DNA of 6,407 nt from a virus. Taxonomy: Duplodnaviria > Heunggongvirae > Uroviricota > Caudoviricetes. The stretch spans positions 1-6,407 of the IMG/VR virus record IMGVR_UViG_648276668_000001, one strand, 5' to 3'. Position numbers and translations under genes: made by a program. The notes under the pieces were generated by a model that worked only from the letters and a program-made list of their open reading frames with translations, did no database searches and was not told where the DNA came from. Positions 3 through 6,407 of this stretch are shown here, in pieces; position 1 is the first letter of the stretch, and each line of letters begins with the position of its first letter.

Positions 3-2108
3 GGCTGTACCAGCCGGGGGCAGGCACACCGCGCCGGGCTGTGGCTGATTAAAACGGAACTGCTGGAGACGCAGACCGTGGATTTCAGCGTGGGTGCTGA
101 AGGGCTTCGCCATGTACCGGGCGATGTCATTGAAATCTGCGATGATGACTATGCCGGTATCAGCACCGGTGGTCGCGTGCTGGCGGTGAACAGCCAGACC
201 CGGACGCTGACGCTCGACCGTGAAATCACGCTGCCATCCTCCGGCACCACGCTGATAAGCCTGGTTGACGGTGAGGGTAATCCGGTCAGCGTGGAGGTCC
301 AGTCCGTCACCGACGGCGTGAAGGTGAAAGTGAGCCGTGTTCCTGACGGCGTTGCTGAATACAGCGTGTGGGGGCTGAAGTTGCCGACGTTGCGCCAGCG
401 CCTGTTCCGCTGCGTGAGTATCCGTGAGAACGACGACGGCACGTATGCCATCACTGCCGTGCAGCATGTACCGGAGAAAGAGGCCATCGTGGATAACGGG
501 GCGCACTTTGACGGCGACCAGAGCGGCACGGTGAATGGTGTCACGCCGCCAGCGGTGCAGCACCTGACTGCCGAAGTCACCGCAGACAGCGGGGAATATC
601 AGGTACTGGCCCGCTGGGACACGCCGAAGGTGGTGAAGGGCGTGAGCTTCCTGCTTCGCCTGACCGTGGCAGCGGACGACGGCAGTGAGCGGCTGGTCAG
701 CACGGCCCGGACGACGGAAACCACATACCGCTTCACGCAACTGGCGCTGGGGCGTTACACGCTGACAGTCCGGGCGGTAAATGCGTGGGGGCAGCAGGGC
801 GATCCGGCATCGGTATCGTTCCGGATTGCGGCACCGGCAGCGCCTGTCACTATTGAACTGATACCAGGGTATTTTCAGATAACAGCGGTCCCGAAACTGG
901 CTGTATATGACCCGACGGTGCAGTTTGAGTTCTGGTTCTCGGAAAAGCGGATTACCGATATCAGGCAGGTTGAAACCAGCGCGCGTTATCTTGGTACGGC
1001 GCTGTACTGGATAGCCGCCAGTAGCAATATTAAGCCGGGTTATGATTATTACTTTTATATCCGCAGCGTGAACACTGTTGGTAAATCGGCATTTGTGGAG
1101 GCCGTCGGTCGGGCGAGCGATGATGCGGAAGGTTATCTGAATTTTTATAAAGGGTTGATCAATAAAACGCATCTCGGCAAGGAACTGCTGGAAAACTTTG
1201 AGCTGACGGAAGATAACGCCAGCAAACTGGAGGAGTTTTCGAAAGAGTGGAAGGACGCTAACGATAAATGGAATGCCATGTGGGGCGTCAAAATTGAGCA
1301 GACCAAAGACGGCAAACATTATGTCGCGGGTATTGGCCTCAGCATGGAGGATACGGAGGAAGGCAAACTGAGCCAGTTCCTGGTTGCCGCTAACCGTATC
1401 GCGTTTATTGACCCGGCAAACGGGAATGAAACGCCGATGTTTGTGGCGCAGGGCAACCAGATATTCATGAACGAAGTGTTCCTGAAGTATCTGACGGCTC
1501 CCACCATTACCAGCGGCGGTAATCCTCCGGCATTTTCCCTGACACCGGACGGGCGGCTGACGGCGAGAAATGCTGATATCAGCGGTAACGTGAATGCGAA
1601 CTCCGGGACGCTCAATAATGTCACGGTAAATGAAAACTGTACGATTAAGGGCATGCTGGAGGCGAACCAGGTCAGAGGTGACTTCGTTAAAACTGTATCC
1701 AAATCATTCCCGAAAAAGGCTGGTACGTGGGGTAACACGGAAACACCAAACGGGACGGTTACAGTCACCATTTACGATGATCATAACTTTGACCGCCAAA
1801 TCATTATTCCGCCCATTATTTTTAACGGTGTGGCGTATGACGATCCGGGGAGCGGTAATAACCCGGGAGGTACGCGATACACGGGTTATGGTTTTGAAGT
1901 TCGCAAAAATGGCGTATTAATCGCATCCAGAGAAACTAAAGGAGCCATTCCCGGTAGTTACAGTGCGGTTATTGATATGCCGAGTGGTGGTGGTAACGTC
2001 ACTCTGGAGTTTAAGATTTTCCAGAAAGGCAATCAGGGCGCAGGTAACATCACAGACTGTACGGTGATTGTGACCAAAAAAGCTGCTTCCGGTATCAGTA
2101 TCCGTTGA
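3..2108 (+). CDS. J: Host-specificity / tail-tip protein (lambda J-like), C-terminal ~700 codons; 5'-partial, gene continues upstream of the window
   Basis: The reading frame is open from position 3 with no stop until TGA at 2106-2108. The provided ORF (78..2108) starts at an internal GTG, but translation of bases 3-77 gives [26 protein letters not shown], continuous with it. From memory, the [51 protein letters not shown] stretch matches lambda J. Two fibronectin-III-like segments are present (e.g. ...[32 protein letters not shown]...), followed by a distal C-terminal domain that in J-type proteins carries receptor specificity. Confidence 0.9.
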
Positions 2109-2155: not shown

Positions 2156-2168
2156 TTGTGGAGTGAGT

Positions 2169-4541
2169 ATGGCAGTACAGATTTCAGGTGTGCTGAAAGA
2201 TGGTGCGGGAAAACCAATACAGAACTGCACTATTCAACTGAAGGCAAAGCGTAACAGCACCACGGTACTGGTGAACACGGTGGCCTCTGAAAATCCGGAT
2301 GAAGCCGGGCGTTACAGCATGGATGTTGAGTATGGCCAGTACAGCGTTATCCTGCTGGTTGAAGGTTTTCCGCCTTCACATGCCGGAACCATTACCGTCT
2401 ATGAAGGTTCCAGACCAGGTACGCTGAATGATTTTCTCGGTGCCATGACGGAAGATGATGTCATGCCGGAGGCATTGCGTCGTTTTGAGGCAATGGTGGA
2501 AGAAGCGGCACGCAACGCTGAAGCCGCCTTTCAGAGCGCAGCGGCGGCAAAGAAATCCGAAGCTGCTGCGGCATCATCGAAGAACGCGGCGAAAAGCTCA
2601 GAAACGAATGCAGCTAACAGCGCACAGGCGGCAGCGGCCTCACAGACTGCATCGGCAAACTCCGCGACAGCAGCCCAAAAATCAGAAGCCAACGCGAAAA
2701 ATAGCGAAACAGCCGCAAAGACGAGTGAAACCAACGCGAAGTCCAGCCAGACGGCAGCGAAAACCAGCGAAACGAATGCCAAAGTCAGTGAAACTGCAGC
2801 GAAAAACAGCCAGGCTGCAGCAGCTGAAAGCGAGAGCGCAGCAGCCGGTTCTGCGACTTCAGCAGCTGGATCAGCAACTGCTGCGGCTAACAGCCAGAAA
2901 GCTGCGAAGGCGAGCGAAACTAACGCAAAGTCCAGCCAGACGGCAGCGAAGACCAGCGAAACGAATGCCAAAGCCAGCGAAACTGCGGCGAAAAGCAGTC
3001 AGGATGCAGCAGCCGAAAGCGAGAGTGCTGCAGCTGGTTCTGCAAGCGCGGCGGCTGCTTCTGCCACTGCATCAGCTAACAGTCAAAAAGCAGCAAAAAC
3101 CAGTGAAACCAACGCAAAGGTGAGCGAAACAGCGGCTGCGAACTCAGCGAAAGCATCGGCAGCAAGCCAGACGGCAGCTAAAGCAAGCGAAGATGCAGCC
3201 AGAGAGTACGCAAGCCAGGCTGCGGAGCCGTATAAATATGTCTTACAGCCGCTGCCTGATGTGTGGATACCATTTAACGATTCGCTGGATATGATTACGG
3301 GCTTTTCGCCGTCATATAAAAAGATTGTTATTGGTGATGATGAAATAACGATGCCTGGCGACAAGGTTGTTAAGTTTAAACGCGCATCGAAAGCAACCTA
3401 TATTAATAAATCTGGTGTGCTGACAGAGGCTGCCATTGACGAGCCACGGTTTGAACGTGATGGCCTGCTTATTGAGGGGCAAAGAACGAACTACATGCTC
3501 AATTCGGAAAGCCCTGCCAGTTGGGGGCGATCGTCAAATATGGATGTGCCCGAAACCGGGACGGATAGTTTTGGTTTTACCTATGGAAAGTTTGTCTGTA
3601 ACGATTCTCTGATTGGGCAAACCTCAGCCATTAATATGGCATCAATTGCTGCAACAAAGTCAGTTGATGTCTCAGGCGATAATAAACACGTGACAACCTC
3701 ATGTCGTTTTAAAACAGAACTGCAGGTAAGGTTGCGTATCCGGTTTGATAAATATGACGGTAGCGCAACAACTTTTCTTGGTGATGCGTATATTGATACA
3801 CAAACGCTTGAAATTAATATGACAGGCGGTGCTGCCTCAAGGATTACAGCGAGAGTCAGAAAGGACGAAGCTACCGGATGGATTTTTGCAGAGGCAACAA
3901 TTCAGGCAATTGATGGGGAGTTAAAAATAGGTTCTCAGATACAGTATTCTCCTAAGCAGGGCGGGGCAACCGTATCTGGTGACTATATTTATCTGGCCAC
4001 CCCACAAGTAGAAAATGGGCCTTGTGTATCATCTTTTATTATATCAGGAACGACGGCGGCGACCCGCGCAAGCGATATAGTTACAGTTCCAATTAAGAAT
4101 AATCTTTATAATCTTCCTTTTACGGTTCTTTGTGAGGTACATAAGAACTGGTATAAAACGCCAAATGCAGCGCCGCGTGTTTTTGACACCGGCGGTCATC
4201 AAACCGGAGCGGCTATTATTCTTGGCTTCGGTTCTTCAGCAGATTACGACGGATTTCCTTATTGCGATATTGGAGGAGCTAACAGACGGGTAAACGAAAA
4301 CGCATCGCTTGAAAAAATGGTTATGGGGATGCGTGTAAAGTCAGATCAGTCTACGTGCTCAGCAAGTAACGGGCGTATATCCAGCGAAACAAAAACCACA
4401 TGGTCCTGTATTCAGAACACCGCAATTATCCGTATTGGAGGCCAGACTACAGCCGGGTTACGTCATTTATTTGGTCATGTCAGGAATTTCAGAATATGGC
4501 ACAAGGCATTGACTGATGCTCAGGTGGGGGAGTCAATCTAA
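2169..4541 (+). CDS. stf: Side tail fibre protein (Stf-like), mosaic: lambda-Stf-like N-terminus, repetitive Ala-rich shaft, distal domain ending in a LamG/concanavalin-like motif
   Basis: The provided ORF starts at GTG 2163, but ATG 2169 is preferred: GGAG at 2160-2163 sits 5 nt upstream, and the product then begins MAVQISGVLKDGAGKPIQNCTIQLKAKRNSTTVLVNTVASENPDEAGRYSMDVEYGQYSVILLVEGFPPSHAGTITVYEGS, which I recognise from memory as the lambda Stf N-terminus. Residues ~120-350 are A/S/T/K/E/N-rich tandem repeats. The distal ~440 residues are different in character and lower in GC, ending ...IIRIGGQTTAGLRHLFGHVRNFRIWHKALTDAQV, which resembles the C-terminal strand motif of LamG_3 / concanavalin-like lectin domains. 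Stop TAA at 4539-4541. Confidence 0.85.
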   Translation: MAVQISGVLKDGAGKPIQNCTIQLKAKRNSTTVLVNTVASENPDEAGRYSMDVEYGQYSVILLVEGFPPSHAGTITVYEGSRPGTLNDFLGAMTEDDVMPEALRRFEAMVEEAARNAEAAFQSAAAAKKSEAAAASSKNAAKSSETNAANSAQAAAASQTASANSATAAQKSEANAKNSETAAKTSETNAKSSQTAAKTSETNAKVSETAAKNSQAAAAESESAAAGSATSAAGSATAAANSQKAAKASETNAKSSQTAAKTSETNAKASETAAKSSQDAAAESESAAAGSASAAAASATASANSQKAAKTSETNAKVSETAAANSAKASAASQTAAKASEDAAREYASQAAEPYKYVLQPLPDVWIPFNDSLDMITGFSPSYKKIVIGDDEITMPGDKVVKFKRASKATYINKSGVLTEAAIDEPRFERDGLLIEGQRTNYMLNSESPASWGRSSNMDVPETGTDSFGFTYGKFVCNDSLIGQTSAINMASIAATKSVDVSGDNKHVTTSCRFKTELQVRLRIRFDKYDGSATTFLGDAYIDTQTLEINMTGGAASRITARVRKDEATGWIFAEATIQAIDGELKIGSQIQYSPKQGGATVSGDYIYLATPQVENGPCVSSFIISGTTAATRASDIVTVPIKNNLYNLPFTVLCEVHKNWYKTPNAAPRVFDTGGHQTGAAIILGFGSSADYDGFPYCDIGGANRRVNENASLEKMVMGMRVKSDQSTCSASNGRISSETKTTWSCIQNTAIIRIGGQTTAGLRHLFGHVRNFRIWHKALTDAQVGESI
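2724..3135 (+). repeat. In-frame tandem repeat inside stf: two ~189-bp (63-aa) copies plus a partial third, each built from ~42-bp (14-aa) sub-repeats
   Basis: Direct comparison: 2733-2921 (aacgcgaagtccagccagacggcagcgaaaaccagcgaaacgaatgccaaagtcagtgaaactgcagcg...) recurs at 2922-3110 (aacgcaaagtccagccagacggcagcgaagaccagcgaaacgaatgccaaagccagcgaaactgcggcg...) with few substitutions. At protein level TNAKSSQTAAKTSETNAKVSETAAKNSQAAAAESESAAAGSA... is followed by TNAKSSQTAAKTSETNAKASETAAKSSQDAAAESESAAAGSA.... Boundaries are approximate. Confidence 0.8.
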
Positions 4542-4822
4542 TGAAAGATTTAACACTCAAATTTGAAGACAGGGCCGACTTTTCGGCCTTTATGGAGAGT
4601 ATTGGCTATTATGATGACGAGTCGATGCAGGATGATATTCTTATCGACGTGATAGGTAACGCGTACAAAGAAACCGGAGAACTGACTGAAGATGGCGAAC
4701 CGGTATGTGTTAAGGAAGACGGATATTTTGTAAACGTGCGCATCATTAATGATTCGCAAATATCGTCATTATTCGATGAGTACGTGGTTGCTGTTGAGCA
4801 TCAACTTCGTGGCTGGATGTGA
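4541..4822 (+). CDS. Hypothetical 93-aa highly acidic protein, translationally coupled to stf; function unknown (candidate fibre chaperone/adaptor or DNA-mimic-like anti-defence protein)
   Basis: The ATG at 4541-4543 overlaps the stf stop (TAATG). A GGGGGAG Shine-Dalgarno-like stretch (4526-4532) sits 8 nt upstream. The product has 22 Asp+Glu against 7 Lys+Arg by my count (net charge about -15). I recognise no family motif. Confidence 0.6.
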   Translation: MKDLTLKFEDRADFSAFMESIGYYDDESMQDDILIDVIGNAYKETGELTEDGEPVCVKEDGYFVNVRIINDSQISSLFDEYVVAVEHQLRGWM

Positions 4823-4831
4823 GGAAGAAAA

Positions 4832-5872
4832 ATGGCTACATCGACAGTAATTCCTGATGACATCAAAACGCTAAAATCCGACGTTAGCAAATTAAAAAAC
4901 GATCAAGGAAGCTACGCAACAAAATTATATGTAGACAGCAAAGATGAAATCGTTGGTGACTGGTCTGCTTCATGGTATCAGCAGGTATTGCCAACTAGCG
5001 GAGCTATATTTGGGAGAAAACTCCGCTCAACTCACAGGACGGCAGGTGTTGAGGATGCGTATTGCGAACTATACCTCAAAAAATGGATAGACAGTCCAGG
5101 TAACGCAATGGCGCGCCTTAACCTGAACGATAACGGGACAAACATTTGCTGGGACTTTACCAACCTTTATGGCGGTACGATGATTTTTCCCGGTGACAGC
5201 GGATACCTCAAAATGGGTAACTGCCTTATGTCATACAGCAAGCGTGGAAGTAACGCGCTTATTAAATTTGATTACACCGACACATTACAGATCAAATATG
5301 CCAATCATGGGTCAACCATGACATTAAACACACAGGGAACCGCTTATGCTGGTGTTACTGCTCAATTGTGGGGCAACTCCAGCCGTCCTGTTGTTTATGA
5401 AGTCGGTGTTGATGGTGGCGCTTATATGTTCTATGCGCAGAAAAATACCGATAACACCTATATGTTAAGCGTTAATGGTGCATGTCATGCCACAGCATTT
5501 AACCAGCATTCCGACCGGGATCTGAAAGACAACATTCAGGTGATCGATAATGCAACCGACCGCATCCGTAAAATGAACGGCTATACATACACGCTTAAAG
5601 AAAACGGTATGCCCTATGCTGGTGTCATTGCACAGGAAGCTCTGGAAGCAATCCCAGAAGTTGTAGGTTCCGCAATGAAATATCAGGACGGTGCAAGCGG
5701 ATCGGAAGGTGAAGAAGGTGAACGTTATTACACAGTAGATTATTCTGGTGTTACTGGCTTGCTTGTTCAGGTAGCCAGAGAGTCAGACGACAGAATAACA
5801 GCACTGGAAGAAGAAAATGCAGAATTAAAACAAAGATTATCTGCAATTGAGGCGACGCTTGCGTCTAAATAA
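4832..5872 (+). CDS. Short tail-fibre/tailspike-like protein with a C-terminal intramolecular chaperone (peptidase S74-type) autoproteolytic domain
   Basis: GAGGAAG lies 5 nt upstream of ATG 4832. The C-terminal ~120 residues, HSDRDLKDNIQVIDNATDRIRKMNGYTYTLKENGMPYAGVIAQEALEAIPEVV...YYTVDYSGVTGLLVQVARESDDRITALEEENAELKQRLSAIEATL, carry the hallmarks of the self-cleaving chaperone domain seen in endosialidase tailspikes and T5 L-shaped fibre: SD..LK.NI at the predicted cleavage site (Ser227, codon 5510-5512), GVIAQE...PEVV, and a terminal coiled-coil-like segment. The N-terminal ~226 residues would be the mature product. GC is low. Confidence 0.8.
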   Translation: MATSTVIPDDIKTLKSDVSKLKNDQGSYATKLYVDSKDEIVGDWSASWYQQVLPTSGAIFGRKLRSTHRTAGVEDAYCELYLKKWIDSPGNAMARLNLNDNGTNICWDFTNLYGGTMIFPGDSGYLKMGNCLMSYSKRGSNALIKFDYTDTLQIKYANHGSTMTLNTQGTAYAGVTAQLWGNSSRPVVYEVGVDGGAYMFYAQKNTDNTYMLSVNGACHATAFNQHSDRDLKDNIQVIDNATDRIRKMNGYTYTLKENGMPYAGVIAQEALEAIPEVVGSAMKYQDGASGSEGEEGERYYTVDYSGVTGLLVQVARESDDRITALEEENAELKQRLSAIEATLASK

Positions 5873-5878
5873 TATTAA

Positions 5879-5898
5879 GGGGCCGAGCGCCCCGTTTT
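5879..5898 (+). terminator. Probable intrinsic terminator after the S74-domain gene
   Basis: GGGGC (5879-5883) / GCCCC (5889-5893) stem with a 5-nt loop, followed by GTTTTATT. The stem is short, so this is a weak-to-moderate call. Confidence 0.45.
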
Positions 5899-5914
5899 AT
5901 TGGGTAGGATGAAA

Positions 5915-6208
5915 ATGGATATAACACCTTTCCTTCATGCACTTTGTGCTGTGGCTGCGCAGGTACTGGTTGGTCTTTTTACCGGAAACTGGGCTTACGG
6001 GGCGATAGCCGGTTGTACGTTCTTCATTGCTCGTGAACATACCCAGGCAGAATATCGCTGGATTGAAATGTTCGGGCATGGCAAGCGTATGAATATGCCG
6101 TGGTGGGGTGGTTTTGATCCGCGCGTGTGGGATGTGGCAAGCCTGATGGATTTTTCTGTGCCGGTGGTGGCGTGTCTGCTGGTCTGGCTGTTGGTTAATC
6201 GTGGGTGA
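5915..6208 (+). CDS. Small hypothetical integral membrane protein (~98 aa, three predicted transmembrane helices)
   Basis: The provided ORF (5900..6208) starts at TTG. ATG 5915 is preferred because AGGA at 5906-5909 sits 5 nt upstream; ATG 5909 is an alternative. Three hydrophobic segments: ITPFLHALCAVAAQVLVGLFTG, WAYGAIAGCTFFIA and VASLMDFSVPVVACLLVWLLV. No lipobox and no recognisable catalytic motif. Stop TGA at 6206-6208. Confidence 0.55.
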   Translation: MDITPFLHALCAVAAQVLVGLFTGNWAYGAIAGCTFFIAREHTQAEYRWIEMFGHGKRMNMPWWGGFDPRVWDVASLMDFSVPVVACLLVWLLVNRG

Positions 6209-6218
6209 AAAAAGGTGA

Positions 6219-6347
6219 GCTGTATATGCAACGGAGGAAGAAACCTCGCTGCTGGAAGCCTGGAAAAAGTATCGGGTGTTGCTGAACCGTGTTGATACAT
6301 CAACTGCACCTGATATTGAGTGGCCTACGAACCCTGTCAGGGAGTAA
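6219..6347 (+). pseudogene. tfa: Remnant of a tail-fibre assembly gene (tfa): conserved C-terminal ~40 codons only, no start codon
   Basis: The frame opens directly after an in-frame TGA (6216-6218) and reads [42 protein letters not shown], ending at TAA 6345-6347. From memory, [30 protein letters not shown] is the conserved C-terminal motif of lambda-type Tfa proteins. There is no ATG/GTG/TTG in frame and no N-terminal ~150 codons. It is absent from the ORF track because it is short and start-less. Confidence 0.7.
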
Positions 6348-6362
6348 TCATTGGGGATTATG

Positions 6363-6396
6363 CCGCAGAAACGTTGTATGCAATAACGTTCTGCGG
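6363..6396. repeat. Imperfect inverted repeat / hairpin (12 bp stem with one bulge, 9-nt loop) just downstream of the tfa remnant
   Basis: CCGCAGAAACGTT (6363-6375), loop GTATGCAAT, then AACGTTCTGCGG (6385-6396). No T-run follows on either strand, so it is not a classical intrinsic terminator. It may be a protein-binding site or part of an element continuing beyond the window. Confidence 0.4.
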
Positions 6397-6407
6397 TTGG
6401 CTGATGC

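Follow-up and report, generated by a model that had tools for sequence, protein, structure and literature searches.

The reading frame at positions 6219 to 6347 of the window, which is the whole 6,407-nucleotide stretch of viral DNA analysed here, is very probably the vestige of a lambda-type tfa gene, of which only the 3' end is left. What remains is a stub of 39 tfa codons and a stop codon, lacking a start codon, which follows a side-fibre gene set at the right end of a lambdoid tail region (Table 1). The stub is already annotated as a pseudogene, is widespread and is of a well-known kind: in the duck Escherichia coli chromosome NZ_CP141767 (locus L001), which is 99.6% identical across the whole window, PGAP labels positions 9349-9468 (equivalent to window 6228-6347) as 'tail fiber assembly protein; incomplete; missing N-terminus'.

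Table 1. Features at the right end of the lambdoid tail region, in window coordinates.
Feature	Position	Strand	Evidence or remark
J, C-terminal part	78-2108		
Side tail fibre Stf, 792 aa	2163-4541	+	PF08400 at residues 3-133
Segment replaced relative to lambda and Rac	2519-6226	+	blastn; in place of distal stf and tfa codons 1-155
93-aa ORF, phrog_1361	4541-4822	+	At the usual place of tfa; start overlaps stf stop (ATGA)
Second fibre, 346 aa, phrog_4563 tail fibre	4832-5872	+	C-terminal Peptidase_S74
GC hairpin and T-run	5879-5893	+	Terminator-like on both strands; separates the 346-aa fibre gene from the 97-aa ORF
97-aa predicted membrane protein, phrog_1443	5915-6208	+	Last gene of the incoming set
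In-frame TGA	6216-6218	+	Translation of frame; upstream end of the stub frame
Stub open frame	6219-6344, TAA 6345-6347	+	Translation; opens directly 3' of the in-frame TGA
Lead-in codons AVY, non-Tfa	6219-6227	+	DNA alignment, blastn against lambda/Rac; 3' flank end of the incoming gene set
tfa-derived stub, 39 codons and TAA	6228-6347	+	Pfam, tblastn, Mu TfaU match, PGAP; start-less pseudogene fragment
Stem-loop GCCGCAG...CTGCGG	6362-6397		Fold, conservation; follows lambda-type tfa ends

The similarity of the stub to Tfa proteins is confined to their C-terminal ends. The profile PF02413 (Caudo_TAP) matches with E 1.3e-17 and 64.6 bits (cut-off 22.1), limited to profile positions 95-130 of 131, and the PHROG tail-fibre-assembly families likewise match by their C-terminal ends only. 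In tblastn, residues 156-194 of lambda Tfa (194 aa) correspond to window 6228-6344 with 89.7% identity (E 1.3e-18) and residues 156-191 of K-12 TfaR (191 aa) to window 6228-6335 with about 89-90% identity (E 3e-16), and residues 142-174 of the 175 residues of Mu TfaU (PDB entry 5yvq_B) also align to the stub (E 3.7e-5). No further Tfa residues, the N-terminal ones included, are found elsewhere in the window in any frame when lambda Tfa and TfaR are used as tblastn queries. In Tfa proteins the N-terminal domain, which binds the fibre, is variable, and the helical C-terminal domain is conserved (PMC9608196). The entire former domain and part of the latter are missing from the stub, which is not a two-domain Tfa of about 175-195 aa. 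The first-pass annotation, made from the sequence alone, had claimed that only the C-terminal motif of Tfa is present, directly after an in-frame stop, and that no functional Tfa can be made from this locus. Both claims hold: translation and tblastn confirm the first, the Caudo_TAP and lambda Tfa matches establish that the similarity to Tfa C-termini is real, alignment to the full-length lambda and Rac proteins shows the match to open at residue 156 (window 6228), and the 39 of 194 residues that are left have no start codon.

The only canonical start codons within the stub frame are GTG 6276 (codon 20) and TTG 6279 (codon 21), and there is no ATG, GTG or TTG before codon 20. The stub is not a translatable Tfa gene with its own start located directly 3' of its fibre gene; three ORFs stand between stf and the stub. 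Probably no product is made from it. The upstream TGA is kept in 18 of the 20 loci sharing the junction and reads TGG in the other two (L019 and L113, both from IMG/VR), where the frame widens to 66 codons and overlaps the end of the 97-aa ORF; this longer frame is probably meaningless. A full-length tfa hidden by a frameshift or a sequencing error, considered in the first-pass annotation, is ruled out, as the upstream DNA has no Tfa similarity in any frame. The stop codon of the 97-aa ORF is complete before the A-run, the stub frame has a separate TGA, and the junction sequence, with its A6 run and its stop, is identical in 19-20 independent loci; this recurrence excludes a sequencing error.

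It is extremely improbable that the stub region makes a small product, be it a 23-aa peptide from GTG 6276, the product of a 19-codon ORF from ATG 6226 or an IS009-like RNA. The Rfam model RF02111 (IS009) does match positions 6206-6304 with E 1.8e-15, but its 68.7 bits stay below the gathering score of 117, only the 3' 70 nt of the model align and the aligned part has no base pairs. In DLP12 of K-12 (L129, 5857-6055) the IS009 model lies wholly inside the 3' half of the tfaD coding sequence. An IS009 small RNA was rejected on these grounds, the match being explained by tfa homology, and IS009 matches in prophages mostly report such homology. The 19-codon ORF (window 6226-6285) is out of frame and is created by the junction itself. 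It is preceded by the SD-like sequence AAGGTGAG, 7 nt upstream of its ATG, but it varies freely between loci (W to G, and P to L, S, T or H) and is shortened to 12 codons in one of them, and it was rejected as unconstrained. A promoter-like site was not found for a small product of this region.

The DNA homology of the window to lambda and Rac, as seen with blastn, is confined to positions 2152-2518, at the 5' end of stf, and to the DNA from 6227 onward, where it extends to 6398 for lambda (the downstream hairpin included) and to 6325 for Rac. Because homology is found nowhere else, the segment between these two blocks is identified as the replaced one, and blastn and DNA alignment place the right-hand junction between 6226 and 6227, at tfa codon 155/156. 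The first-pass annotation had put this recombination junction at roughly 6210-6235, an interval that contains the breakpoint. These observations are best explained by the following origin. An ancestral lambda/Rac-like tail region with the order J, stf, tfa and hairpin would have had its distal stf and the first 155 tfa codons replaced by an incoming set that comprised a new Stf distal domain, the 93-aa ORF, in some cases a second fibre, and the 97-aa membrane ORF, and the join at tfa codon 155/156 would have spared 39 codons together with their stop and the hairpin downstream. The new fibres are probably independent of Tfa, the distal domain of Stf being apparently of a different, non-lambda type, so that there would be no selection for a Tfa protein.

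The four ORFs of the gene set are all intact in the window. Stf combines a lambda/Rac-like N-terminal domain with an Ala/Ser-rich repeat shaft and a non-lambda distal domain; its residues 436-636 match the NCBIfam GTA_spike_fiber domain, and the head spike fibre of PDB entry 6tb9 is matched with E 4.3e-7. The shaft (2520-3230) contains 21-nt (7-aa) repeats rich in Ala, Ser, Glu and Thr inside a 189-nt duplication. The 93-aa ORF is a constant companion of this Stf type, and its homologues are all named 'hypothetical protein'. The idea that it is a Tfa, or the N-domain of one, changed by divergence was rejected (hhalign probability 0.08%), and its AlphaFold model, with a mean pLDDT of 46, is too poor for use. 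In the 346-aa fibre, PF13884 (Peptidase_S74) matches residues 227-278 with E 4.7e-14, and the Ser227...Lys232 cleavage dyad reads SDRDLK. The terminator-like hairpin that follows this fibre gene suggests that the 97-aa ORF may be expressed apart from the late operon, as in a 'moron'; a promoter-like site was not detected for it. The 97-aa ORF is always directly to the left of the stub, and is found in stub-less phages too. Profiles of defence systems give no matches to the 93-aa ORF, the 97-aa ORF or the 346-aa fibre.

The 20 loci having exactly this junction differ in their upstream content. The common pattern is an Stf of 686-803 aa, an ORF of about 92 aa (32-100% identical), a second protein, the 97-aa ORF and the stub, where the second slot is either empty or taken by the 346-aa S74 fibre or by a protein of 234 or 227 aa. 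About 32 N-terminal residues are common to the 346-aa and 234-aa proteins, which suggests a shared attachment segment in these two; the 227-aa protein has no match. The gene set looks like a branched or exchangeable receptor-binding arrangement. As a recurring side-fibre gene set it is seen in the window (2163-6208) and in loci L007, L016, L019, L041, L100 and L125-L127, and together with the stub it is also present in the sequenced phages Tritos, HannyBb, PhiR63_1 and 2G7b. All 20 loci keep the 97-aa ORF intact (pN/pS 0.225), and the stf, 93-aa and 346-aa ORFs have pN/pS values of 0.21-0.39 in the loci that could be compared.

The junction is found far beyond these phages. Any match to window 5880-6407 occurs in 4,906 of 5,426 complete E. 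coli genomes, and at least 80% of this region, which spans the 97-aa ORF and the stub, is covered in 692 of the 5,426. In an evenly spaced sample of the ranking, the ORF-stub junction is present in about 14 of 40 records; the other sampled records match only from query position 349 (window 6228) onward and are ordinary tfa genes. In NZ_CP141767 three places match window 5880-6407. The junction is old and very widespread and was later reused as a crossover zone, and it is not a recent private event of this element.

Several lines of evidence indicate that the stub is dispensable and that the gene set appears to work without Tfa. In Perceval, a phage of the same gene-set family, the flank of the sit operon truncates the stub at window position 6284, and in PhiR40_1 and IdasGreatGrand there is no stub, the GCCGCAG...CTGCGGC hairpin following directly after the stop codon of the membrane ORF; the stub is dispensable since these relatives carry a shorter one or none. 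Tritos forms plaques on MG1655 hsdR- and has been imaged by electron microscopy (PMC9928086); among the stub-bearing phages, plaque-forming evidence from the literature covers Tritos alone. A second Tfa-like sequence is absent from the complete Tritos genome. Peptidase_S74 domains are intramolecular chaperones, which take the place of a separate assembly protein, and from its domain match the 346-aa fibre would be expected to fold by means of its own C-terminal chaperone. Locus L006, the one locus examined of a second junction type described below, has its stub directly 3' of a 1260-aa Stf which also ends in Peptidase_S74, so that a self-chaperoning fibre stands beside a decapitated tfa in both junction types examined.

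The opposite reading, in which the fibre module is defective without Tfa and the prophage is cryptic, is very unlikely. Lambda PaPa forms plaques without Stf (noted in PMC3945230). Plaque formation is therefore no proof of side-fibre assembly, and the viability of relatives does not prove that their fibres work. Also, in the near-identical chromosome NZ_CP141767 the region lies, as seen from its tail end, which was the part inspected, at the Rac site beside sitABCD, the prophage end adjoining sitDCBA-uspF-ompN. Against a defective module stand the intact ORFs of the gene set in the window and its relatives, with pN/pS values well below 1, the presence of the module in several sequenced phages and the S74 self-chaperone of the 346-aa fibre. 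The first-pass annotation had left both alternatives standing; a Tfa-independent fibre is now favoured by the S74 domain, the intact ORFs and Tritos, and a defective fibre in a cryptic element is disfavoured.

A scan of IMG/VR with a 29-nt conserved tfa pattern identified 119 loci, most of which are full-length tfa genes of 191-194 aa. The junction of the window accounts for 15 of them. A different start-less stub occurs in 10 loci, with its junction about 11-15 nt further to the left, and a third junction type, in five loci, yields an ORF of 36-39 codons that has an ATG in four and is start-less in L056. Several further loci have ORFs of 88-89 aa resembling the tfaX region of DLP12. In the stubs having the junction of the window, L to R, W to R, W to L and S to P changes are observed, which are absent at those residues in 59 full-length tfa genes. 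Most of the stub polymorphism is nevertheless common to intact tfa genes, and the crude pN/pS, which is conditioned on an exact match to the 29-nt pattern, is 0.26 for the stub versus 0.27 for the same codons of full-length tfa. There are thus signs, in the form of residue changes seen only in stubs, that the constraint on the protein has been relaxed, but the crude pN/pS, being no higher than in intact tfa, does not demonstrate decay statistically.

The stub pN/pS is no higher than that of intact genes because the stub combines lambda-type and Rac-type alleles in a mosaic. In the haplotype table all four combinations of the sites 6253 (T/G) and 6299 (A/G) occur, locus L100 is Rac-type across the whole stub, and the same mutations peculiar to stubs occur together with either kind of 3' end. 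To the right of this one junction at least five different contexts are seen: a Rac-type end with pinR; a lambda-type end with a methyltransferase and additional fragments of tfa; a third hairpin flank; a lambda-type end with sitDCBA; and the Perceval truncation. From this mosaic structure it follows that recombination has crossed over inside the stub, joining one gene set to at least five right-hand neighbours. This is also in agreement with crosses between lambda and Rac, in which one third of the right-hand crossovers fell within tfa homology of 95% (PMC3945230). The fragment amounts to about 100 bp of DNA with at least 90% identity to the tfa genes of other lambdoid prophages; as this homology remains, crossovers would keep falling in the stub, as the mosaic haplotypes indicate, attaching the gene set to different right-hand neighbours and overwriting the stub from intact tfa genes. 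The stub would then persist, and still look conserved, through ongoing homologous recombination and not through selection on a protein.

Two of the right-hand neighbours deserve further description. The sitABCD iron/manganese transporter operon lies immediately to the right of the stub, on the opposite strand, at 9681-13130 in L001 and 9075-12524 in L125; its left junction is past the hairpin in L001 and inside the stub, at 6284, in phage Perceval (L125). The presence of pinR beside the stub of Tritos prompted consideration of a Pin/Gin invertible segment, which was rejected as there are neither crossover sites nor inverted gene copies: neither the window nor the pinR-bearing Tritos locus contains a gix/pix-like ..AAACCnnGGTTT.., even with 3 mismatches allowed, no meaningful inverted repeat spans the gene set, and the gene-set ORFs are all on the + strand, with no fibre or tfa gene in the opposite orientation.

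The stem-loop downstream of the stub lies between convergent transcription units and probably serves as their boundary or as a terminator. The fold of 6340-6407, which includes a small upstream hairpin, has an energy of -23.3 kcal/mol (z -3.4). When lambda, 2G7b, L006 and the stub-less L126 are compared, the outer stem GCCGCAG/CTGCGG is fixed and the inner stems vary; at least five versions of the inner stem exist, all of them still paired. The same stem-loop is located at about 4073-4108 in L005 (lambda), about 8663-8697 in L006 and about 8360-8395 in L126, and in L006 it resembles a strong terminator of the opposite-strand gene. In the window no terminator-like T-run is present 3' of the stem-loop.

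It could be argued that the stub is kept for a role in cis, either as a recombination linker or landing pad that, with the hairpin, would permit exchange of fibre gene sets to its left and of accessory genes to its right, or as part of the 3' untranslated end, where it would stabilise the late transcript or terminate it. This explanation, which overlaps with neutral persistence through recombination and adds selection for retention, is tentative and on the whole unlikely. In agreement with it, at least three independent start-less stub types retain the same block of roughly 100 bp, two of the junctions are no more than about 15 nt apart, crossovers inside the stub have produced the five or more right-hand contexts, the hairpin is conserved despite its variable inner stems, and experimental crossovers also fall in tfa homology (PMC3945230). 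However, the sequenced phages with half a stub or none imply that it is not required, neutral persistence with gene conversion predicts retention equally well, and the missing T-run in the window does not fit with a terminator function. The more specific notion that the tfa 3' block of about 100 bp and the hairpin form a selected, portable homology arm, kept by fibre sets that are independent of Tfa, is doubtful. If true, such an arm would move fibre sets into any lambdoid prophage that has a tfa gene, and would also permit exchange of sitABCD, pinR or methyltransferases on its right side. Persistence through recombination, without selection for retention, remains our preferred explanation.

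Remnants of tfa are well known in E. coli prophages, and the discovery value of the stub itself is small. Its breakpoint (6226/6227) and the replaced segment do define a natural, widespread fibre set which is apparently Tfa-free and which is relevant to the engineering of lambda-type side fibres, and the mosaic haplotypes illustrate cleanly, in natural sequences, how crossovers within about 50 bp of leftover homology join one fibre set to several right-hand modules.

The closest known counterparts are the tfa remnants of the cryptic prophages of K-12, in particular the tfaD-ybcY-tfaX region of DLP12. These remnants are likewise short, keep the conserved C-terminal block and close a lambdoid tail region on its right side, next to unrelated genes, and in 2G7b and many IMG/VR loci a DLP12-like methyltransferase and a second tfa fragment come right after the stub. 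Unlike the DLP12 remnants, the stub follows an intact and apparently functional fibre set in inducible phages, not in a decayed prophage; with 39 codons it is also shorter, and it lacks a start codon. With lambda Tfa, TfaR of Rac and TfaU of Mu the stub shares the conserved C-terminal helical part (89-90% identity to residues 156-194 of lambda Tfa), but when compared with a full-length Tfa it lacks residues 1-155 and the start codon and is not located directly after the fibre gene. With the S74 fibres, such as the endosialidases and T5 pb1-type fibres, it is the neighbouring 346-aa fibre and not the stub which has features in common, namely the predicted S74 domain and the Ser...Lys motif. In the stf-tfa exchange described by De Paepe et al. 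2014 (PMC3945230), the conserved part of tfa is the region of the right-hand crossover, as it is here, and the lambda/Rac mosaic haplotypes of the stub are the natural counterpart of those laboratory recombinants; the crosses used full-length tfa genes, whereas the stub leaves only about 100 bp of homology.
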